Part shown: positions 3,501 through 62,278 of the stretch, piece after piece | How positions within the stretch are numbered: the stretch's first letter is position 1 | Layout: each line of letters opens with the position of its first letter | DNA from: Leucoraja erinacea | Lineage: Eukaryota | DNA length: 64,000 nucleotides | Reading direction: 5' to 3' | Assembly (NCBI RefSeq): GCF_028641065.1 | Contig: NC_073412.1 | Location: forward strand, 310,001 to 374,000 | The notes under the pieces: model-generated | The model's database searches: none | Told to the model about the DNA's origin: nothing | What the model saw: only the letters and a program-made list of their open reading frames with translations | Position numbers and translations under genes: made by a program

Positions 3501-6500
3501 CCTGAAGGTGCTGACTCTGGGACACTGACATTGAACAGAGTTGATGTGCTCACTGTTGCTTTGGGACAGCTTCAGGGAAGCTGACGCTTGCAAAGCTATG
3601 GGCCTTTATTCTATGGAATCATGAGTAAGAGACATGTTTAATTGGTGGGTGTTGATACTCATATGTCTTGAAAGATTTGCTCTTCTTCCAGATTGAGGAG
3701 GAGATCATGGGCTGCCTCGACTTCTTGCGCTCGGTATATGGAGTCTTTGGTTTCACTTTCCAGCTGAAACTCTCCACGCGGCCAGAGATGTTTTTAGGAG
3801 ACCCGAACACATGGAATCAAGCAGAAGAGGCAAGTAATAACTGGGCTAAGAGGCTACAGTGTTCAGGCTGATGTTCTTGGATGTTCCAGGAGACTTGCTG
3901 GAAAACAAGTGGTTCATAATCCATAATTTCAGGCATCCAATATTTGAAATTCTCCATTTAGGAGCTGTCAAATCTCATGATGTAAAGGAAAGTTCCAGAA
4001 AGAAAGAGCTTTCTTTAGTGGCTGACTACGCTGTGTCACCTGAGAGCGTTGATCACAGACAGGTTGCTGGAAAGGGTAGACATTGGTTTCCAGTGAATGG
4101 CATCTGGACCTGAATAAGCATGAGGGTTATTAATTCCAGTTTAAAGTTGTATAAACGAAGCAATCATCATCAGTTGGAGCTGAGCCTTGGTTTCTTTGCT
4201 GTTTTAGCATTTGAAGTGCAGTTTGGATGCGTTTGGTGAGGCCTGGAGACTGAGTGCAGGAGATGGAGCTTTCTACGGACCGAAGGTTAGTGATGGAAGC
4301 ACTTGGGGTTTGAGAGACTGCTGTCAATCTTAATCTCCCAGACACTTTTATCTTCTCTAATTGACTGCAGATTGATGTTGACGTGAAGGATGCCCTGGGC
4401 ATATACCATCAGTGCGCCACCATCCAGTTGGACTTCCAGCTTCCTATTCGGTTTAATTTGACCTACGTTAGGTGAGAGTGGTTTCAGGATGCTAGGCTTG
4501 TGTTACATAGTTAGCTTGGTTGTGCTATGACATCAGGGTACTGACGGCTCCCACTCACCACTAACACTAGAGATGGAATGGGAGGGTTGGTGTTGTGTGC
4601 GTATGTTGCTGATTCATCTTTCTGTTTGTAGCAAGGATGGAGCGGATGAGAACCGCCCAGTTATCATCCATCGTGCTGTGCTAGGATCGCTGGAACGCAT
4701 GGTGGCTATCCTTGCTGAGGACTATGCTGGGAAATGGTAATGCTTCAAAGCCAAATAGCACAGGGCAAGTGAGTTTCCCCACTGAGTCTCGGGTCACCCT
4801 GGCACTGCGTTATTGGCTCTGTGGGGAATCCTGTCCAAGGTTATGTGCTTTATCAGTCCTGGAGAAGTTTCACAGTTGGATTGGGCTCTGTTACCTGTAT
4901 CAGGATGGGCAAATCAGATGTGAGCACAGCAGGGTGTTGAATGAAAGAAGACAGTCGCTAAAAAGCGTTGATAAAGAACTTATCAATGGCAGAACAGATA
5001 TCACAGGCTTTGTTAACTTGCTACAGCTGGGCCGTCGAGATTAAACCAAAAATTTATCCTCACACCGTCTGTCTCACATGCTTTCCCCGGGCGATATGTC
5101 TGTGATTATCCCACTGCCCCTAGATTGACCTTTGTCTTAATTGTTTTTCCATGTTCCGCCCCCCCCCTCCTGACTAAATTAGGGCTGGTTTGTTGTTGCC
5201 TCTACATGAGTGACCGCTTTTTTAATGGTCCCCTACCCTGGGAAAAGACTCACCTTATCTATGCCCCTCATGATTTTATTAACCTCTGAAACATCACGCT
5301 CAGCCTATCCGACTATTCCAACTATTAAATCTTCCAGACCATAACATCCTCATATCTCTTTTATATATTTTCCACTTGAATGACATCTTTCCTGTGGCAG
5401 GGCATGTAAAACTGTACATAGTACTCCAAATGTTGCTTACCAACGTCTTATGTAGCTGTAACTTGACGTCCCAACTTCTGTACTTCATACTCTCACCATA
5501 GAAGACAAAGATGCCGAATGCCTTCTTCACCACCCTGACTACCTTTGTTGCTACTTTCACTTTACCATGTACCTACATCCCTAGGCCTCTGCGTAGGAAG
5601 GAACTGCAGATGCTGGTTACACTGAAGATAGTCACAAAATGCTGGAGTAACGCAGCGGGACAGGTAACATCACTGGATAGAAGGAATGAGTGACATTTTG
5701 GGTCGAGACCTACAGAATGAAGGGTCTCAGATCTCAGTATGGAGAAAGGTCTGAACCTGAAACGTCATCCATTCTATCCAGAGATGTTGCCTGTCCCGTT
5801 GAGTTACTCCAGCATTTTGTGTCTGTCCCCAGGCTTCTGTGTTCTACAACACTCCCAGGTCCCTACCATTTATTGTGTAGATCATGTGTGGTTTCAACAC
5901 CTTGCATTTATCTGAATTAAACTCGATCTTCTCACAGTTGATAAAGATCCCATCGTAATCTTAAATAACCACCTTCACTGTCCACTATACCACAAATTAT
6001 CATGTCAATCTTCGTGGTTACCTCTTTAAAAAAAAAAAAAAAAAATCCCAATCAAATCATGAGACATGATTTCCCATGCACAAAGATAGGGGGAGTTCAG
6101 GGCTAGCATGTTCAGGTAGAGTGAAAGGCAAGGATGGCTGGAATAGGGAACCCATGGAAGACAAGAGATATTGAGGTTATGGTCAAGAAAAAGTAAGGAG
6201 GCATACATCAGCTTTAGGTGTCTGAAGACTGGTGTGTGTGAGTGCAAGGAAAAGCCTGAGCACTACAGATCGGTGAGCCTAACATCAGTGGTGGGTAAGG
6301 TGTTGGAAGAGTTTCTGAACAGCAGGATAGTGGCACACCTCTACTTATCTCATATTTGAAAGCCTTTCACTTGCCTGTAAACAACCTCCCCCAATTACCT
6401 ACTGAAATTTCCTTTTCTAATACCATTAAAATCGTGTTTATCCACGTTTAGAACTGGTTGGACCAGTCCTATCTTTTTCTGTAACTGTTTTAAAATAGAA

Positions 6501-8370: not shown

Positions 8371-8430
8371 GCAGCGTGTGTGATGGGGAACGGGCATCTG
8401 TAGGTCTCAGTGGGCAGTGTGTGGAGGGGA

Positions 8431-8622
8431 TAGACACAAAATGCTGGAGTAATTCAGCAGGACAGGCAGCATCTCTGGAGAAAAGGAATAGGTGATGTTT
8501 CGGGTTGAGCCCCTTCTTCAGTCTCTGCCTGAAACATCACCCATTCATCTCCAGAGTTGCCGCCTGTCCCAATTTGGGTCTATCTTTGGCTTAAACCAGC
8601 ATCTGCAGTTCCTTCCTACACA
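8431..8622. mobile_element. Penelope-derived inverted-repeat element
   Basis: Arms match the family seen at 41538-41853 and 62070-62278 (agacacaaaatgctggag...cccttcttcag / gaaacatcacccattc...ccagcatctgcagttccttcctacac). Confidence 0.65.
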
Positions 8623-8870: not shown

Positions 8871-11800
8871 ATGGCGGCGAGGAAGCTTCTGGAGCGCCTG
8901 CTGCTGCTGGTGATGGCGGCGGCGGCGGCACTGGGAGCGGGCAGCGGTGAGTGCGGGGCCGGGCCGGGCCGGGGCTGCTCCTGCTCCTGCTCCTGATGGG
9001 AGCGGGAGGTGAGTGCGCGCCGGGGATCCGGGCCCTGCCCGCTGTGGAGAACCTGGGCCCGGTCGGGGCGATGCGTTGGGCCTAACCCCTTTGCTTCTTG
9101 TCCACAGAGTCTCCGAGCACCGGCGCCCCCGATGGCCTGCTCCAGTCCCGGGGCACCAGCATGCCCGCCGCCGGCGGCCTGGACAGCACCCGCGCCCAGC
9201 CCGAAGTCGGTAAGTAAGCGCGGTGTGTGTGGAGCTCCACGTTCGCCGTGCCGCCGGTCTCCCTGCAATCACCATCTCTCTCTCTCCCTCCCCAGCGCCA
9301 ACCACGATGCCACCCTACCTGGCGAGATGCCCGAGCGCCGGGCCGTGCAACAGGCTGCCGCCCGACTGTGTCGACTGCTCGCTGCATTCTAATTGTGTCT
9401 ACGGAAAGGAGGTTTCGTTCAACTGCTCAGTCAAGCCAGGCGTACAATGCACGGTAAACAACCGATGTAACAATAGAGGAATCTGGTAGATAGATAAAGG
9501 AACGGGCCCTTCTGCCCACTATGGCTGTGTCAACCCCACTTGCCAGCAGATTGTGTGCATGTCCAACCAGACTTGGGGGCTTTCATGGCCTGCTGTTTAT
9601 GTTCTTGTCTAGGTCAAGTAGTGCCAGAATTAACCTAAAATGTTGACTTATTCCATACACAATAACTTATGTTTTGTGGCATTTTGTTTTTTTAATTATA
9701 TTCAGGAACACAAAATTCTTAACAGCGAACTCGATCTGTTCATCTTCTCGAGGTTCCCATGTGCAAATGGTTATTGGTTTTGTATTTTTCCGCTCTATTC
9801 TGCGTTTGTGTTTGCCTGTATGGGAAGCCAGCCTCCAGGTGTCTTGCCAGTATTCTTTCCTCAGCTACAAGTCAGTGCTACATGACTGCAGCTGTTGAAT
9901 CTTTCATTATTTTGGGAGATAGTGACAGTCTGTCAGGTCCCTTTGAGGATCTGTCAGAACCGAACTAGTTCTATCTGGTCGAGTGACTAATATTGTGGCT
10001 GGGTAACCCGCTGGTGTCCCAATGGCTTTCCACCATCTACAAGTCAGGATGTGATTACTTGCCAAGGCTATCTTGGCAGCAGCCTTCAAATCTGCAAGAA
10101 GAATAAGGGCAGCAAATGCACAGGATTGCGACTACCCACAAGTATCCTTCAGTTGCGCACCATCCTGCCAACTCCACTGCTATTACTGTGTCTAAATCCT
10201 TGAACCCCCACCCCCACTGCAGCTGTTCAAGTTAGTCTTAAAGGTAATTAATGTTGGACAGTAAATACAGACTTTGCCAGAAAAATGCCCAGATCTGAAA
10301 ACATAAATTTAAAAAAAAATGGTTCTCAGCCTTTAGCTTCTAATGTAGCACACTCATCCTTGGTAGAACATGGTTCAGGCATCTGGCAATGCTGCCACTC
10401 TGCACCCACCCCCAGCTTTGTAGTTGAGACACTTGAATATTGAAACCATTCACAACATTGGAGGGAAAAAAGATAAGGATTGCAATGGTTTATCAGAGGT
10501 GATAACTGGAGCCCTACGAGGAGCATGGGAGAAAAACATAGCTAACGTGTAGATTAGCTGACTTTGCATGTAAAGTAATGGATTCTGACACATCAGTGAC
10601 TTTGTTATCAATTATTTATTATTGTTCACGTGTTTTTATTCTGTTTGCTACTCAGGATGAGAATAAGATAGATCAAAAAACATTTTGGATATCAATGGTC
10701 TGTCAGTTCTGTTGGCAGTTACCCCCCACTCTGTACCAGTGCAAGGAAAGTACGAAATGCAAGACGGTGCGTTGCCCACGTGAATACTTTATCTCCAACT
10801 GCACAACTCTGGAACATGTGCATTGTCTTGGTAGGTAGTCTTCGAAGGGGCAAACATTGGTGCTGTGTGATTTGTGCAAGTGCAATTACTTTATTCAAAA
10901 TATGGATAGTTCTGCTATAATTCAATAGTTGCTTTTCTAAGAAACTGTTCATTATAGAAAATCCCTAACCCTGACCGAATATGTGGTATTCGCAAAGTCA
11001 TTAATGATTTATCCTGTTAGCTATATGGCAATACGTGAACCAATGTTTAATGGATTTGGTGAAGTCCAAGTAGTTTAATCATTTAAATGTAATGGACCGG
11101 TGTAAGAAATAACAATGTTGATTCTTATTTGGTAAGCTATAATACAAAGGATTAATATGATGCTGTAATAACAAATCAAAAGTCGGGTTAAGTTGAATAG
11201 TTCTAAGTAGTGCATCCAGGAAGAGTACATTGGGCTTTGAGGGAAGGCAGTGTTGATGTACTAGAGCTGATAACTGAATTCAAGCCTGGAGTTTCTTCCC
11301 AGAGGCCATTAGGAGTCAGAAGGCGTTTCTTCCCAGAGGCCATTAGGACTGTAAACTCCTATCTCACCAGGGACTAACTTTACTGTACCACTCTACTGCT
11401 TTTTTTAGTATGCTAGTTAATAGTTAATGCTGTTTTTTTCCCTTTTTCCTTCTGCCCACAATATTTAATATGTAAAAGAATATGTGATTCTGTTCCATTC
11501 TGTTTGTAGTTTGTTTGTTTGTCTTTTTGCACAAAGCCCGTGAGCATTGCCACTTTTCATTTCACTGCACATCTTGTATGTGTATGTGACGAATAAACTT
11601 GACTTGATTGCCAGGGTCATGTTCCCTGGCATATGAAGGTTTAATGACGGGATCAAAGTTACAAGTGAGGGAATACTGCTGGGATAAACAGAATCAACTA
11701 TTTTGATTTTGGAAAGGCTTAAAAATAGGGGATGCAGGTGAAGAATTGAGACCACAATGGTTTTCAGCAATAACTGTAAACACTGTTGTGAACTTGTGCA

Positions 11801-16624: not shown

Positions 16625-19600
16625 TCAGATTACAAGCGGCTTGCTCCTCTCTACAGATGTTTGGAATCCTTTAGTGCCGTCTGGTCCTCTGGGCATGCGT
16701 ACTACTCCTGCAGGCAGCCCGCCTGCACTGTGCATCTTTCTAGAAAGCATGGGGCTGCCAACTGGAGTATTCTCATGTGATACCACCTGAGCTTGCTTGC
16801 GTCTCTGTACCCAGGGGCTGCCAGACGGTGTGTTGCTGCTGTCCGATGAATAGTCAGTCCACTTACTTCCAACCTCAGCATTTGCAGGAGCTCCAAGCTT
16901 AGCATCTGCAGTGAGCGGAGATTTGTGCACAGCCGTATCTTTCCGTTGCATCGATGGGCTGGAACGCGGACTGTTCCATGGACTAGCTCGGGGAGAAGTG
17001 TTAGGACTCAGGTGATTGTTTTTATAGGTGTTGGGGCTCAGTTGATTAATGGGTTTGGGTTTGCGGCCAAGCATAGGAGATGCAGGGTTGCTCTCTGGTT
17101 CAGAAGAGCTGCATGCTGAGGAATCTTCACATATATACTGCAACTCCTCCACTCGCTTATTGCTAGATTTGCTTTTCATCTCATTCTTGCCAACATCTTC
17201 AGCTTCTTTGTTCTTCTCTCTGACAACTTTCTTCTTTGGTGGTTTCATCTCTATTAGCACCACTTTCATTCCCCTTTCATCGTTTTTTCCAAGTGATTTA
17301 TGTGCCTTAATTGCAGATTCAACATTTTCATACTCTACAATTACACAGTCCTTTGTTCCCAACTGTGAATAGCGATTGCCCAGTCTTTTCACATCTGCAG
17401 GGAGCTCCTTCCCTGGCTTTATAACACGAACCGAGATAACTGGACCAAACACACCAAATGCCTTCAGTACGTACTCCATTATCCTTTCTTGCAAGCCAGC
17501 ATTGTCACATTCTAGATTATCATTTAAAACCTGGAGTTCTGGACACAGAAGCATATCATATACCAGCAGTATCTGACTTGGAAGATGCTCACTGGGGAAA
17601 ACTGGAACGACTGTCTTCCGTCTCACTTTTTTCCCTTCATCATTTAGTTCCAAAAGGTCAGAGTACTTCAGAGCAAAGGCAGTTGTTTGCCAGTCACGAG
17701 TGAGGTGTTTTACCTAGAACAAAAGGTTCTGTTTTATCTATGCCTATTCAACAGGAATGAACACCTGGACAATTCACTTAATTATAGTAATGAAATATCA
17801 AAGCAGTTAAACCATTGCTGAGGGAATAGATAGCGATGCTTCGGCTGGGACCCTTCTTTAGATTGAAGCAGGGTTGAGAATGTTGATAAAGAGAGATGGG
17901 GGAGGGGGCAAGGCATTGTAAGTGATAGGTGGAAACAGACCTCCGCTCTGTTCACAATAACCAACCTGATCTCCCGGTGACTCAGCACTTCAACTCCCCT
18001 TCCCATTCCGAATCCAACCTTTCTGTTCTGGGCTTCCTCCATGGCCAGAGTGAGGCCCACCGTAATTTGGAGGAGCAGCACCTCATATTTTGCTTGGGCA
18101 ATTTACACCCCAGCAGTATGAACATTGACTTCTCCAATTTCAGGTAGTCCCTGCGTTCTCCTTCCCTTCCCAGCTCTCCCCCAGCCCACTGTCTCCGCCC
18201 CTTCCTTTCTTCTTCCCACCCCCCACCCCCCCCCATCCTCATATCAGTCTGAAGGGTCTTGACCTGAAACGTCACCCATTTCCTTCGCTCCATAGATGCT
18301 ACCTCGCCCGCTGAGTTTCTCCAGCATTTTTGTCTACGGTGGATACAGACGAGAGGTTTGATGGGCAGATGTGGAATAAATTACAAAGGCTGGAGGTGAA
18401 GGTCAGATAATAAGAAAGAAATGTAAAGCTGGGAGGAATGTGGGTGCACAGGGATGGGCGGAGACCTAATGCAAGGCCTCTTTCCATACTCTATCTGTTA
18501 ACTAATGTAGGCTATCCCACTGAGCCCGTCCTGCATTATCAAGATCGAGGCTGATCACCTTCCTCAGCTTTACTTTACAATCCACATCCCTCAGTCCAGA
18601 AATCAATCATTGTCATTGCAAAGAATATAGCTTGAGGGAAGAGAATTCCACTGATTCACTAGCCTTTAAGGTGTACTTTTTTGAGAAACTGTGCTCCCGA
18701 TCTCAGACTCCTAAGCCGTCTAATGTCAAGCCCACAACCCCTTTAACTATTTTGTTTAGATCTGCTCTCATTATTGTAAATTTGAGATTATAATCCACTC
18801 ACCCTATTCTACGGCAAACATCCCACTTTTGGAATAGTCTAGTGAACCTTCACTAGACTTTCACTATGGCAACTATTTTCATTCTTAGGCGATACAAAAA
18901 CTAGTAAATATGGAGTCACCAAGAATGTATAGAACTGAACTGATTTTTTCTGCATTCAAATTCTCCAAATACTGTACTACATTCCTTTTGAATGACTCGC
19001 TGTACCGGCTCGATGTTCAGTTACTTGTGCAAGAGCAAACTTCAGTCTCTTTGAACATCCACACTGCCCAGTTTCTTACAATTTAAAACTTTCTCCAGTC
19101 TGAGCATTAAAATGGCGACCGCACATTATATTCCATCTGCCATGTTCTTGCCCACGCACCCAGATTGTTTGTATCATCTTGACCCTCTATCTTCATTGCT
19201 CGATCTCACCTTGTTTAGTGTTGGATGTGAACGATTTGGATGCGTGTCAAACTAGGTGCCTATGTGGCTGTTGGGTGAAATGACTGGCGTTATTCTGTTT
19301 GAATACATGGTAGTGATAACATTAAATGGTTTGCTGGGCCATTGCAATGGAACACAATAGTTAGTCTATGGGGCTAGTTCAGGGCAAGGAGAGTTCATTT
19401 CCTTCATGAGGACATTCATGAACCAGATGGGATTTGATCTTTCCAAATTCTTCTTTAAATGCCAGTGGCATTATTCATTCATTGAATACATACTAGCAAA
19501 ACAGTGTTTGGATTAACTCAGCAGATCGGGCAGCACCTGGTGAGGGAATGGACAGGTGACATTTCTGGACAGACCCTTCCTCAGACCGATGGAGATGGGG

Positions 19601-20662
19601 GAGAAAGCACGACAAGTAATAAGTGAATACACACGAGGGGGGTATTAGCAGATGGGTGGATTATTAGTTTTGAAATGCAAGTACTATACCACAATAATCA
19701 ACTATAGTTGAAAGTAGATGATTGGGACTTCAACGTTCTTCATCTATGTAATAAATCCCCATCATCCGACTTTGAGCAACCCAGCAAGGAGATTAAGTCA
19801 GTGAGGGATCCATTCTACTAACTTATTGGTGTTAGTCTAAAGCTTCAAATTAGCCACCGCCACCATGCAAGCTACAACACAAGACACTCAAAGTGTTGGT
19901 TTACAACAAAAAGATAACGTACTGGAGTAACTCCGCAAGACAGACAACATCTCTGTCATCATGGATGGGTAACATTTCGAGTCGGGACTGTTTGGGGGGG
20001 GGGGGGGGGGGGGCTGGAAGAGAGGAGGGCAGGGCAAAGCGTGGCAATAATATTAAAGAAGGGTCTCGACCCGAAACGTCTCCCATTCCTTCTCTCCAGA
20101 GATGCTGCCTGTCCCGCTGAGTTACTCCAGCTTTTTGTGTCTACCTTCGGTTTAAACCAGCATCTGCAGTTCATTCTTACGCAATAATATTAATGTTACC
20201 TTTTTGAAAGAAGTCAGCAGTTTAACACTGACATAGCCCATCTTATTTCTTCTCACGTGCTTTAGTAGAAATGCATCGTTTTCCAGGTAGTCATCAGACA
20301 GATAATATTCAATCTGGGCAACAAGTTTCTGTACCAGCTCACTGTCCGGTGGCGCCCACTCCGCCGCCAGATCATCTTCAGTACCGCTGTAACAGACAGG
20401 GAGCGGATTAACGAAGCTCCGACCCCCGCCTCCCTCCCTCCATCTCCCCGGCCGCCTCCTCCCTCCCCATCTCCCCGCGGCCTCGGTACCTGTTTATCCC
20501 GGGCCCGGGAGCCGCCTCTTCATCCGTGCCGCTGCCCACGCTGCCGCCCTCCGGCCGCGCCACCGGCTCCTCCTCGGCCGCCGCCACTTGGATGCGGACA
20601 AGCGGCGCGGCCTCCCCGGCCGTCACTGTCGCCCCGGTGTCGCCGAGCGTTCCCCCCTCCAT
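16625..20662 (-). CDS. LARP6: La-related protein 6 (482 aa from ATG 20662; 3 exons)
   Basis: Exon 1 20662-20490 (MEGG...LVRIQVAAAEEE), exon 2 20386-20200 (La motif QIEYYLSDDYLENDAFLLKHVRRNKMGYVSVKLLTSFKK), exon 3 17713-16625 (VKHLTRDW, RRM, SPWVQRRK, C-terminal VVRMPRGPDGTKGF). Total 1449 nt with consistent phases. Confidence 0.95.
17929..18340 (+). mobile_element. Penelope-like element 3' fragment: GIY-YIG C-terminus plus pseudo-LTR
   Basis: PVTQHFNSPSHS...LEEQHLIFCLGNLHPSSMNIDFSNFR*, then a C-rich tract and ctgaagggtcttgacctgaaacgtcacc (degenerate hammerhead core). Confidence 0.8.
19878..20180. mobile_element. Penelope-derived arms in LARP6 intron 2; the right-hand copy (20056-20180) has a 12-bp TSD
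   Basis: gcaataatatta at 20044-20055 and 20181-20192 flank aagaagggtctcgacccgaaacgtc...ccagcatctgcagttc. Confidence 0.7.
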
Positions 20663-26400: not shown

Positions 26401-29400
26401 TGGGAAAACGTTAATAATATGACTGAACTTCATAATAGTGCAAGGGAATGGGACTAATATTGCCTTTCACAGAATCACTGAGCTATCCTGGAAAATATAT
26501 ATTTGTGAGAAAAGTTTGGTATGTATCCCAAAAATGAACTCTGTAATAAAGTTTCATTCTGTTCTCATGGACAATTCTACACGTTTTCTATTGCTGTAAT
26601 TGATATTCTGTATATTTTAATAATATTTAATTGTTGATTATTTGAATGCAAATTATTGTACCTCCAGCACAAACATCATGCCAGGTAGACAAGTTATAGG
26701 GAGGCAGATTATACTTCTGTAGACTCTACATTGAATTTTGTTGTTCACAGAAATAACCTGTCATGATGATCCACTCCGCCACTACTCAGAACTGTCATTG
26801 AAGGAAACAGCTGGGGACATGCCATCACAAAGTCCCAGTTTACTAAAATCTCGACAGGGCTCTCAAAGTGCTGTGCCTTTCCATTCTCATGGTCACGGAA
26901 CCTTGCCGTACTTACCAGGTATTTCCTGTTTCCTGTTCGTAACCTATTCTGTTTCTGTTTTAAAAGGCCTAATGAAACAACAGTCCTATGTCAAGTGGGC
27001 TGAATTAGAATTGTACAAAACTATGAAAAATGCCTTTCTACTCTCAGTCCTGATATGGTTAAGTGGTTTATGAAACCACATGCCTATCAGCACCAACACT
27101 TTTTAATCTCTCCGCACATAAAAATCACATCACCTTTTTATTTTCTCCACTTTTCATATTTTTCTGCATTTTATTGCGTCCATGTCCTTGACCATTTACT
27201 CACCCTGTCCATATCATCCCAAAGCGTCTTGGCATCTCCTCACAGGGGAGACTGACTTTCAGCTTTGTGTCATCAGCAAATAGCGATAAACTGTAAATAT
27301 TCGATATTGATTGTGAGCAGCTGGGCATCGGCACTGATCTCTGGGACACTTCACAAGTTAGTTCTAACCTGAAAATTACCCTCTGTATTTAGTTTGTTCA
27401 TTTATCCTTAATCAATGCTCAGGTATTAATTACCCCAGCCCACCACCCACAGATCCTGATTTAATTTGAAAATCTTTTAACAAAGGTCTTCTGAAAGTTC
27501 AAATACACCACATCACATGATTCACCTTTATACAGTCTGCTTCTATGTTTTGTCTGATGGTCTTAGATTCTTTTGTTCATGCATGATGGAAATCCTGAAC
27601 ACTATCCAGAATATTGTTGAGGTTGGGGTGGTGGGGGTGATGGTTGATAAATGGAGAACTTTAAACCGGGGTTGTACATAAACTTCCTAGGCAGAGCTAC
27701 TCCAAGCTGTGAAACCAACATGGATTGATGAGGACAATGTATAAATCATGATTCCATAGAATGGTAAAAGCAGATTGCAGGGGCTTGTGATTTTTTAAAA
27801 CATTTTGTTATGAACTCAAAAGTCATCTTCCAAATAGGCTGAATTGCTGACTTGTAGAAGTAGCTCATTTCTGGCTTCCTTGTTATTTATTTAGTTGGAG
27901 CACCGTTTGTATGTTAGCCTGGCTACAAATGTTCCAGTCCAATGACCTTCTCTGTATGCTGAGAAATTCTGTATTATAACCAAACCCTTTGTAAATTCCC
28001 AGGTGACAATGTCATTTTCTCTGAGCTTCCTTCAACACCTGGAATACCAGTTGTATACCGCACACCCGAACAGCGGGCGGAATATGCAGACAGACTGAAT
28101 CTGGACAGGTGAGTATGATTTTAAAAGATTGAAAAACAGTATAGTTCAGAAATCAGCCCTTTGGCCCACAATATTTGTGCCGAACATGATGCCAAGTTAA
28201 ACTGATCTCATCTGCCTGAACATGATCCATTTCCCTCTATTCCCTGCACTTCCATCTTCCTATCTAAAAGCTTCTTAAAGGTCACTATCACCACCACCCT
28301 GGGCAGTGCATACCAGGCTCCCACCATTTTCTGTGTGATAGAACTTGACCGCACATCTCCATGAAACTTTCCCCCTCTCGCCTAATAGCTATGTCCACCA
28401 GTGTTGGACACTTCCACCCTGGGACAAAGGTTCCGACTGTCCAGGCCTCTCATCATTTTATATACTTCTATCAAGTCTCTCCTCAACCTCTGGCGAACCA
28501 GAGATACCTATCTAAATCTATCCCTGTAACTGAAACCCTCTAATCCAGGCAGTGTTTGGGTAAACCTCCTCTGCACCCTCTTCAAAGCCTCCTCATCTTT
28601 CCTGTATTGGGATGACCAGAATTGCAAGCAATAGTCCAAATGCTGCCTAATCCAAAGTCACAGAATTATACAGCAGGGAAACAGGCACCTTGGTCTAACT
28701 CATTCATGCCAACCCAATTGCTCTGTAAACTAATCCTATTTGCCTCTATTTCATCTTCTTCTTCTGTCGTGTGGCGTGCACAGCCTCAAGTTGTTGTATT
28801 TGATCTTCCGTTTGTACACGTCGAGTTGATTGCATTAGTCGAAACAGGGCAGACCACGTGAAGGTTGCCATCTTCCACCCCCCTATTTCATCCATTCTCC
28901 TCGAAACCTTCCCTACTCACATACCTGTTCAATGATAAGTGGTCCTAACAATGTAATTAAGTTCATGAATATAAAAGAAAGTTAAATCGATACGATTATA
29001 AATTGAGAGCATTTTACTGATATTTTTAGTTAAAACGTCAATTTATTATCTAGTAAACTGAAATAAGGCAGCCACAACTGTAATGAAACATTGCCTAATT
29101 GAAGAAAAATGAATTAGTAGACAATTAAAAAAATAGCATTTGTATTGAGAGGAGTGGAATAAACCTTCCCTGAGCTGCATCAGAATAATGACAGGTTTTC
29201 AGTGAGGTGTCTACATTACAACAGAACTACAGTGAATGAAGAAATTACAGCATTGTTCCCTTGGAACTACAGTGGGTAAAGTCAATAAATGTATTTTACA
29301 TAGGTTACAAACTAACTGTTTTCAACCCTCCCAATATGAACTGTTTTTGAATAAACCATCACAATATCTAAGCTCTGAACCCATAGCTCCCACATCATTG

Positions 29401-38400: not shown

Positions 38401-41400
38401 ATTTGTAGACATGATTTCCCACACTAAAAGCCTCACTGACCATTCCTAATCAGGCCATTTCTTTCCAATTGTATGTCAATCCTGTCCCTTAAATCTGTGG
38501 TTCCAAATGACTCTTCTGCCAAAGGAACAGGTTCTTCGTCTTGCGTATGGCGTGCACAGCCTAAAGTTGTCGGACAAATTGTTCTATTTGATCTTATTTG
38601 ATTGTGCACGCCGGGTTGATTGCATTTGTCGAAACAGGGCGGACCAGGTGAAGGTTGCAATCTCCCACCCAGGGAACAGGTTCATTTGTGTTCACTTTGA
38701 CTAGGCCTCCGCTCCAATCGAACCTCCTCTCAGTTCCACCCCTGCCTTTAGCAGTTTCTCTTCAAAATTATAATGTTTCAACATTGGCAGAATCCTTGTA
38801 CACCTCAGCTGCACCCTTCATGCGATGTTTTGTCTGCAGCCGTTGACAGTTGGCTCAATATGACTTAAATAATGTGTAGGAAGGAACCGAAGATAGACAC
38901 AAAATGCTGGAGTAACTCAGTGGGACAGGCAGCATCTTTAGATAGAAGGAATGGGTGACATTTCGGGTCGAGACCCTTCTTCAGGCCTGTCCCGCTGAGT
39001 AACTCCAACATTTTATGACTTAAATAATGTTTGTGTGATTCAACGATCACCTCCCTGCGCTTGTGTTCTATATCAGGCGGTCCCATACTTAGCTTCTTGT
39101 CCAACTTTGCATTGCCCTACATGGAACTGCATGAGAGAGCAATTTCACCAGATGGAATCCCATCTTTCCAGCTCAGTTAAAATTGGGCAATGAATGCAGT
39201 GACACTCGTATCTTGAGAATTAATATGCAAACATTTGATCTTTGCATATTTTCATAAACCCGTGGGCAGCAACACTACCTGCTGCTCCACTTACTGCACC
39301 GTTGTTTTATTCAATTTAAATGGATACTCTATTGGATCCCACTGCAAGAAACTGATACTACTTCGGAAGTGAAAGATACTAGTTGTGAGATGTGATTAAA
39401 TTAAATATTCATTTTATCTTGATTAGCAAGCTGCCACAATAGACCAGAAATCAGGCTGAATTAATGCAACAGAGATAGTGACCATAAACCTTTGGGATGG
39501 GATGGGAGTGCAGTCTGTGAGATAGTTAGCAAAGCAGAGAATCCATCTTTGCTCATTTATGTTCAAGATTCTCAGAGATGGTTGTATCCATTAGTTATTT
39601 CTCATTTCTTAATTGTATTTAATACAGTTTCATTAGCCTCTTTAATTAAATGTTTTCATAAAACGCAGATTTGAGAACATTGCTTGCCTGGCAGACTCTG
39701 TATCACTCTCGGAGGTCACCCTGGATGGCAATCCCATAGCTCAGGAGTCATGGTACAAGCAAACACTTCTCCGACACATGGTGCAGCTCCGACAGTTGGA
39801 CATGAAGAAAATAACAGTGAGTCTCCAAGGCTGGCCGCACTGGTGGGATGTGTGCCGTAACATCCAGCTCTGCCACTGTCCATCAGTCCAGTGGGCTGAG
39901 CAACAAGACACTCATGGAATGCTCTCTTATACTGACCCACTGCTTCATCTCGTTGAGGAATAGTTTTGAGACTTTGGGATTAACTAGTTGAATTGGGGAT
40001 TAGAAAGATGATTGAAATGGAATTTGAAAACCATTTGTGACATTGATAGAAATACAGTATAGCAGCCAGTGATACATGACAGACTCCAGGACTGTGGTGC
40101 ATTTGGAGTTTAATTTGATTAGGCAGATTTAGATTTCCAGATGACTGGGACTATTTCTAGGGATGTTGGACCTGCGTAAGCTGAACCAGAAAGACCCAAC
40201 ATCCTCAAAGGGAGGTTTGCTGGGACTGTTGGGAACAAGTCTGCATCTAATTTGGCAGGGAATGGGACATAGACCAGATTCCCCATAGACAGTCTGGGGA
40301 AGGTGCAGTCAAATATAGGACAGCAAATCAGCCCAGTAAAAGCACAGGCATGGGTGTGATCAGCCACTTGGGGGGAATGTGAGACTAAATGGAAGTTATT
40401 TTAATGAAAGAAGGTGAACGTAGTGTGTTTGTCAACTCATGGGAAGGAATGCATTTCGTTGTCTCTGTACTGTACACTGACAATGACAATAAATTGAATC
40501 ATTTCATTTTTTCATTTCATTTCATTTCATTTCATTTCATTTTTTTTTGATACTGTTGCTGTCACACTGACATGGTTAAATGGAGAGCAGGAAGGGCACG
40601 GTACAGAATCATCGGGCCTGTTGGAGGGTTGGGGAATAATGGTGGGATGTAAAAAATGGGATTTTAAGGAATCTATTACTTTGTTCAATAGAGAGGCAAT
40701 TCACACGTTTGATTTCTTCGCAGGAAGAGGAGAGGAGAATGGCATCGGTCATGGCCAGGAAAGAGGACGACAAGAAACGTGAAATCCACAAGCAGGCAAT
40801 CTTGAAGGTGCGGGCTCACTGCTGGAGTATTAGTTTCATATTCATTGCAAAAATAATCCAATAGTCAATAATTGAAAATCAAATGTGAAATAATAACAGA
40901 ACATTCGGTGGCATGAATAGAAAGAGAAACAGTGTAGATTGCAGGAGGCCATTTACTTTCAGTCCTAGCCATTACACAGCCATAAACTAACCAAATAGAA
41001 TCATATTGAATTATTGTGCATTATATTTAAGATGTTTTTGGGTTCACAGCCACAACCTAAAGAGTAAAAAGTTAGTAAAAAATATCTTTTAAAACAACAG
41101 AAATGGATAATTTATCAAAGCCAATCTCAAATTTAATTTAATGTAGTTTTACTGAAAAAAGAATGTTCAGTAAATAACTAATGGGAGTAGTATTGATGAT
41201 GAGTGAATATCATTCCAGCAGAAACAGCTGCGTTCAAGGTTCAATGTCTGTGCCAAATCTCCTCTGCCACCACATGATCCGTATCCCTCAATTCTCAGCA
41301 TGTTTGTATGCCTATTTAAAAGCTTTTTATATGTCACTATTGCATCCGCCTCCACCACTATCCCTGGCAGTGCGTTCAACATACAACAACCACCCACATT

Positions 41401-62069: not shown

Positions 62070-62278
62070 CATCAAAGATAGAGACAAAATGCTGGAGTAA
62101 CTCAGTGGGACAGGCAGCATCCCTGGAGAGAAGGAATCGGTGACGTTTCGGGTCGAGACCCAGTCTGAAGAGTCACCCATTCCTTCTCTCCAGAGATGCT
62201 GCCTGTCCAGCTGAGTTACTCCAGCATTTTGTCCCTATCTTCGGTTTAAACCAGCAACTGCAGTTCCTTCCCACACAT
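62070..62278. mobile_element. Penelope-derived inverted-repeat element
   Basis: gacaaaatgctggagtaactcag...gtgac / gtcac...ctgagttactccagcattttgtc arms of about 65 bp. Confidence 0.75.

Follow-up and report, generated by a model that had tools for sequence, protein, structure and literature searches.

Within the 64,000-nt window of Leucoraja erinacea DNA analysed here (contig NC_073412.1), exons encoding La and SUZ-C domains are located approximately 8 kb downstream of the element described below and on the same strand (Table 1). These exons presumably belong to a LARP6-like gene. A U3 snoRNA gene and an adjoining tRNA gene were identified using Rfam. The window also contains an abundant repeat of approximately 200 bp with inverted ends, present at many sites in addition to those listed, and a long low-complexity purine/pyrimidine tract with stretches of N.

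The element of interest is a member of subfamily A of a mini-element family, M1, in which the 5' and 3' ends of a LINE (V0) are fused. The first-pass annotation of this stretch described it as a SINE-like mini-retroelement headed by an HDV/CPEB3-type ribozyme. Its 54 letters for the minus strand of the head are those of the sequence, and both copies of the proposed 10-bp TSD match each other. A single extra G separates the upstream TSD copy from G1, which places the start of the element within 1 nt of the predicted cleavage site, and the proposed (GAA)n end is (GAA)3 in this copy. The annotation had also stated that the element lacks a tRNA head and A and B boxes. The sole Rfam tRNA match of the window is located elsewhere, and scanning two near-consensus copies revealed neither an A nor a B box, so the features of a tRNA-derived SINE were not found by either scan. 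No remnant of a Vingi-type ORF was found in the window.

Compared with a near-consensus copy, the flagged copy carries U13G, which produces a G x A mismatch in P2, and C31U, which produces a G.U wobble in P1. Three more changes are found further 3', along with a 12-nt deletion in the 3' part. Because of the P2 mismatch, the ribozyme of this copy is probably impaired and the copy itself is probably a weakened passenger. The second M1 copy of the window, from subfamily B, is probably inactive.

Table 1. Features of the 64,000-nt window, numbered from its first nucleotide.
Feature	Position	Strand	Remarks
La and SUZ-C domain exons	16625-17713, 20152-20493	-	
U3 snoRNA gene and tRNA gene	56881-57098, 58384-58455	-	Rfam
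Repeat of ~200 bp	5589-5827, 8429-8622, 62075-62277		many other sites in the window
Purine/pyrimidine tract	48900-54800		contains N stretches
Flagged mini-element, M1 subfamily A	28756..28881	-	126 bp; fused 5' and 3' ends of V0
Predicted minimal HDV-like ribozyme	28828..28881	-	G1 at 28881; descriptor parse and covariation
P1 of predicted ribozyme	28881-28875/28852-28846	-	descriptor parse
P2 of predicted ribozyme	28872-28866/28834-28828	-	descriptor parse
P3 of predicted ribozyme	28865-28863/28855-28853	-	descriptor parse
L3 of predicted ribozyme	28862-28856	-	descriptor parse
G37-U38 of predicted ribozyme	28845-28844	-	descriptor parse
Stub of 5 nt replacing P4	28839..28843	-	descriptor; stub of mini family M2 is of equal length
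J4/2 (C-U-A-A)	28835..28838	-	predicted catalytic C44 at 28838
Copy-specific U13G, G x A mismatch in P2	28869	-	likely weakens the flagged copy
Remaining LINE 5' UTR and short linker	28797..28827	-	includes 5' arm of stem pairing with the 3' end
LINE-derived 3' end, ~40 nt	28756..28796	-	(GAA)3 tail at 28764-28756
Upstream TSD copy, 10 bp	28883..28892	-	extra G at 28882, before G1
Downstream TSD copy, 10 bp	28746..28755	-	repeat of 28892-28883
Second M1 copy, subfamily B	38532..38670	-	begins at G2; G25C in L3; 11-bp TSD

Predicted fold of the element head

The structure descriptor follows the HDV-like strand order P1, P2, P3, L3, P3', P1', P1.1', (P4), J4/2, P2', and it parses the head of the flagged element in the double-pseudoknot order that had been proposed for it. 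The parse comprises a 7-bp P1 with a G1.U wobble, a J1/2 of 2 nt, a P2 of 7 bp, a P3 of 3 bp and an L3 of 7 nt. The P1' strand is followed by G-U, a 5-nt stub, C-U-A-A and P2', in agreement with the earlier description of a 54-nt fold in which P4 is cut to about 5 nt. With one P2 mismatch allowed, the flagged head is the single descriptor match in the window, and replacing the catalytic C by A, G or U gave zero matches in the window. A set of 100 Markov-simulated 64-kb sequences contained four descriptor matches in total. On the fetched loci this false-motif control is confounded, the 23 matches obtained with A being probably alternative parses of the same heads.

An Rfam scan of the window, which had been suggested as a check, gave no HDV or CPEB3 match for the flagged copy at E<=1. 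The fold therefore rests on the descriptor and on covariation rather than on Rfam. Single-strand folding gave ordinary z-scores (-0.52 and 0.78), as expected from a folding program that cannot model the pseudoknot.

The M1 family and its partner LINE

A search of the 2.19-Gb genome with the M1 element returned 2,572 candidates, and an exact 22-mer spanning J4/2 has 6,065 matches with the catalytic C and 556 without it genome-wide. CpG decay accounts for 74 of the first 100 non-C matches listed. The base next to C44 varies freely, while C44 is kept in all amplified subfamilies. The family has at least 6,600 copies, and since two copies were met by chance in 0.44 Mb of unselected DNA, its total is put, very roughly, at 10,000. 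Subfamily A copies average 97% identity to the near-consensus copy.

The 5' ends of these copies pile up at G1 genome-wide, as the first-pass annotation predicted. Among 92 distinct copies, a set filtered for near-full length and with 60 of its loci chosen by similarity, the alignment begins at G1 in 77, at G2 in 9 and at positions 3-8 in 6. A fairer test is provided by loci chosen by their 3' pattern alone, 30/30 of which reach to within 8 nt of G1, with one split by another insertion. A TSD was found in 89/92 copies by calls that allow one mismatch, a few of which are probably chance, and it ends at offset 0 or +1 in 64/92. The genomic bases preceding G1 are mixed and not mostly G. One locus (L056) considered as a longer derivative was rejected due to an unrelated insertion inside it.

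A genome search using PF00078 identified L1-like ORFs only, and the partner LINE was not among them. The Rfam CPEB3 model applied to the genome gave 59 scored candidates, 48 of which were at or above the cut-off, and many of these head a 3.15-kb single-ORF LINE, V1. In the loci L121-L170, heads recognised by this model top the LINE families V1-V4 and also M2, another mini family, which is approximately 170 bp long with a 5-nt P4 stub, TSDs and a (GAA)n tail. A set of 70 LINE loci did not contain the partner LINE of M2.

Searching with the V1 RT led to related families, and the 3' end of the flagged element closes 2 of the 40 loci fetched; these represent the family V0. The element's 3' ~39 nt terminate 24 of 30 V0 loci picked by RT, an M1-type head starts 11 of the 15 V0 5' regions shown, and both head and tail are present in 4/12 fetched V0 stretches, of which L311, L312 and L316, at the least, also have TSDs. 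V0 thus carries the M1 head and tail and is the LINE sharing both ends that the earlier reading had called for. The flagged element exhibits the features of a bipartite non-autonomous LINE (SIDE), namely both ends in common with V0, a deleted ORF, TSDs and a simple-repeat tail. Judged by these sequence comparisons, it is an internal-deletion derivative that joins the front ~80 nt of V0 to the back ~40 nt. The label of SINE-like mini-retroelement stands insofar as the element is non-autonomous and headed by a ribozyme fold, but it is no de novo SINE and belongs to a known class of LINEs that have lost internal sequence.

V0 is a decayed single-ORF LINE of ~3.1 kb, and its frameshifted APE-RT ORF covers most of a 1,019-aa relative. 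This relative, the intact P0122 (75% identical), contains APE and RT domains and no RNase H. Vingi elements are defined as compact LINEs with a single ORF encoding APE and RT and without RNase H (PMC13708176), and this organisation was found in P0122 and in the V0 fragments. V0 groups with V1-V5 and with sea urchin, insect and Anolis proteins (support 98), the group comprising proteins of ~1,000 aa that have APE and RT but lack RNase H, a multi-copy Anolis protein among them, in trees without a named Vingi, Ingi or RTE reference and with an Anolis protein that carries no clade name. This group is apart from the RTs in the loci that we take, from their motifs, to be CR1-, L1- and L2-like, and the V0 subclade differs from that of V1. 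A PDB search identified only L1, R2 and group II RT relatives.

The first-pass annotation had favoured an RTE-like partner, and one could picture a SINE-like element mobilised by an RTE that acquired its ribozyme head independently. RTE elements do yield bipartite derivatives and have ribozyme heads (PMC5786205), and the RT trees contained no RTE reference. Both ends of the element derive from the one LINE, V0, however, and via P0122 the V0 RT is 47-55% identical to the compact APE-RT group, including the Anolis protein, and less than 30% identical to other LINE types in the loci. Independent acquisition with RTE mobilisation is therefore regarded as very improbable, and V0 is likely a Vingi rather than an RTE, as far as RT similarity and domain content indicate.

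The V0 copies seen are all decayed and ~85-90% alike. They predate subfamily A, which weakens the case for them as the source of the protein behind its latest burst. In the V0 head of L271 (389-634), J4/2-P2' contains an ATG that shares its reading frame with the beginning of the endonuclease ORF. The 5' heads frequently lie in the opposite orientation to the ORF remnant, a pattern resembling twin priming that was observed in 6/30 RT-picked V0 loci (L243, L248, L255, L260, L264, L270) and in six V3 loci (L149, L324-L327, L330). Pairing is possible between the stretch immediately 3' of the ribozyme and the one immediately preceding the tail (L154, L158, L206, L063, L271/L242). This pairing exceeds shuffles in V1 (1/500), M2 (3/500) and V4 (9/500), is borderline in V0 (31/500) and M1 (26/500), and is absent in three other cases. 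The P0002 cluster brings together a protein of the teleost Aldrovandia affinis and one that is 84% identical to V1, a hint of horizontal transfer.

Covariation, RNA ends and the proposed cycle

The covariation alignment contains 13 heads from seven families and compares sister families rather than copies within M1; its related rows are not independent. The P1, P3 and P1.1 cells are paired in 96.5% of cases, and both sides have changed in 5 of 11 pairs. None of 500 shuffles was as high, and slid structures were also far below in cells paired and covariation score, with two of five covariation measures not above shuffles. The P2 cells are paired in 89/91 cases with a sequence that differs by family, the two exceptions being the flagged copy and one old V3 copy. 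The catalytic C of J4/2 is present in 12/13 heads. The M2 head also has a 5-nt stub and its helices differ from those of M1, and one P1 pair is U-A in V0 and U.G in most mini copies. The covariation of P1, P2 and P3 anticipated by the first-pass annotation was thus observed, the pairings being kept by compensatory change across the sister families.

RNA evidence was obtained from four raw-read runs of the same species label, two single-cell runs (from one study) and two bulk runs, aligned to the near-consensus copy L013. In the single-cell runs, 1,897/2,749 and 1,638/2,634 aligned reads carry loose letters just before G1, with a consensus agreement of 0.71 and 0.67. We take this consensus to be a template-switch oligo, complete with its three Gs, which joins G1 directly with no extra G. 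A minor class of 126 reads (agreement 0.5) joins the oligo straight onto an A at position 1, also with no extra G. The oligo is unlikely to have invaded the strand at the G run, as all three oligo Gs are outside the element's four Gs. Loose ends that are A-rich or poly(A) are found near the element tail. The loose letters of the bulk runs come mostly from mixed flanks, with both strands equally represented, as predicted for read-through. An RNA 5' end at G1 was found for M1 family reads aligned to L013. At a template-switch junction, capped RNA is reported to usually gain one extra base and uncapped RNA none, and uncapped RNAs starting with G are favoured (PMC6885630), so RNA abundance cannot be read from these counts. 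The oligo junction carries seven Gs, in agreement with an uncapped start at G1 but also with a capped one at G2.

Changes predicted to break the fold total 12.8% and 18.9% in the sense single-cell reads, whereas the six control read sets give 29.3-36.8%. For two neutral CpG changes, the totals are 20.9-22.6% (sense single-cell) and 19.7-31.4% (controls). Among the changes listed (those above 2 in 100), 10 of 12 fold-breaking changes are depleted in sense single-cell reads (rank test p 0.009), where the classes were set by the structure model after the table was seen and reads sharing a locus do not count as independent. C44U is at 2.3% in sense single-cell reads, 6.0% in antisense and 4.3% in bulk reads, with one bulk run at just 2.8%. 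U13A, another change at the position of U13G, is about tenfold rarer in sense single-cell reads. Two fold-breaking changes (U29C and G49A) are not depleted, and the structure-keeping G32A and the 'neutral' U39G are. Overall, the depletion of fold-breaking changes in sense reads fits self-cleavage in vivo.

These data were weighed against two other readings of the RNA ends. In the first, the head would act chiefly as an internal Pol II promoter producing short RNAs capped at G2, with ribozyme activity secondary. The seven Gs can be read in this way as oligo, one cap-derived G and G2-G4, 9/92 copies align from position 2 only, and Pr77 of the L1Tc/ingi clade is described as both promoter and ribozyme (PMC4035085). 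A promoter requires neither the covariation of P1, P2 and P3 nor the depletion of pair-breaking changes in sense reads, though, and it does not account for the 126-read class, which starts at an A in position 1, or for the mixed genomic bases before G1. This reading is considered unlikely.

In the second, the fold does not cut and instead blocks 5'-3' exonucleases or binds the LINE protein, so that decay stops at G1. Uncapped G1 ends that need an intact fold would be expected here too; cap-like protection by such folds is noted in a review of R2 (PMC13708176), and P4 is almost gone. A non-cutting fold leaves unexplained why C44 is kept in amplified subfamilies beside a freely varying neighbour, why its losses among the first 100 listed are mostly CpG decay and why C44U is depleted in sense reads, and HDV-like ribozymes without P4 are reported to cleave in vitro (PMC10879173). 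A purely protective role is held to be less probable still than a promoter.

We consider it probable that M1 is a V0-derived mini-element whose HDV-like head releases it just before G1 and which is copied by a LINE protein. In the proposed cycle, a host read-through transcript containing the element would fold the pseudoknot, and C44 would drive cleavage just before G1 to free an RNA with an uncapped 5'-OH end. The LINE protein would then bind the RNA 3' end and copy it by target-primed reverse transcription up to G1. The 3' product would retain the ribozyme, so that any intact copy could go through this cycle again without a promoter. Mobilisation in trans by V0, the lack of a promoter and the clade name are what we infer, and a P4 reduced to a stub may not permit fast cleavage.

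Relation to the CPEB3 ribozyme and to known systems

The suggestion that this family could bear on the origin of the mammalian CPEB3 ribozyme holds through the sister LINE heads, which pass the Rfam CPEB3 cut-off, but not through M1. No match to RF00622 (gathering cut-off 35 bits) was found for M1 in the window, L013, L063 or L281, whereas the sister LINE heads score 38.8-64.9 bits. Counted by eye against the Rfam CPEB3 consensus, M1 matches 27/49 core bases and V1 41/49, and the V3 head in L139 matches 54/63, including all 14 P4-stem bases. M1 resembles the CPEB3 ribozyme in segment lengths, L3, the G1.U wobble, a single C-G P1.1 followed by U, and a C-N-A-A J4/2. The CPEB3 ribozyme is single-copy and intronic with a full P4 (RF00622; PMC8233481), unlike M1, which is a dispersed multi-copy family. 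M1 is thus a cousin of the CPEB3 ribozyme and not its source. Because the sister heads are so close to the mammalian ribozyme, the Vingi-type LINE group is its likely source.

In 7 of the 8 V3 loci examined, the head is associated with ORF remnants from that LINE group, six as inverted neighbours. In the eighth (L139/L323; L323:1490-1595, minus strand), a CPEB3-like head is found alone between 10-bp repeats. The CPEB3 ribozyme has been reported as not found outside mammals, leaving it with no outgroup (PMC8233481), while a review describes structure-based relatives from lamprey, lancelet and sea urchin, as well as a spread by retrotransposition (PMC8256844). The sister LINE heads offer outgroup candidates as well as a route to a solitary head, which inversion of the twin-priming type could leave behind. 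We modestly favour a wider picture, in which CPEB3-type ribozymes generally head Vingi elements, these have given rise in this vertebrate to ten-thousand-copy mini-elements driven by a ribozyme without P4 that is active in vivo, and mammals have domesticated a solitary Vingi head, like the TSD-flanked lone head in L139/L323, as the CPEB3 ribozyme.

Literature searches, with Repbase, Dfam, patents and supplements outside their scope, returned nothing on the M1 family or on Vingi ribozymes, and no precedent for the Vingi-type partner, the P4-less vertebrate head, the copy number or the CPEB3 tie. If the reading is true, M1 would be a high-copy vertebrate P4-less HDV-like ribozyme with RNA support, a type otherwise reported nearly exclusively from phages, and its thousands of intronic copies could cut host transcripts. 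Vingi elements are under development for gene insertion (PMC13708176), and a self-cleaving 5' UTR and a natural template of ~140 nt bear on such designs.

The bipartite internal-deletion class to which M1 belongs is already known from R2 SIDEs and from NARTc/RIME. In the R2 SIDEs of Drosophila, a 5' HDV-like ribozyme is joined to the 3' end of the element's own LINE, with release from a co-transcript and copying by target-primed reverse transcription (PMC3414825). M1 differs from these in its APE-type partner, dispersed insertion, TSDs of ~7-14 bp, thousands of copies, vertebrate host and 54-nt ribozyme. NARTc, RIME and SIDERs of the L1Tc/ingi elements, with the L1TcRz/Pr77 head, are likewise short and internally deleted with an HDV-like ribozyme as their head (PMC4035085), and Ingi is the sister clade of Vingi. 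The trypanosomatid L1TcRz/Pr77 head, which has promoter activity, is 77 nt with a P4, and its partner contains an RNase H (PMC4035085). The head of M1 is 54 nt, and the relatives of its partner exhibit no RNase H. The internal deletions described for Vingi-1_EE are also bipartite 5' and 3' derivatives of a compact single-ORF LINE (PMC5786205). M1 shares with the minimal HDV-like and theta ribozymes an HDV-like fold without the P4 domain; these have been described nearly exclusively from gut phages, beside tRNAs (PMC10879173), whereas the M1 ribozyme heads a vertebrate retroelement.
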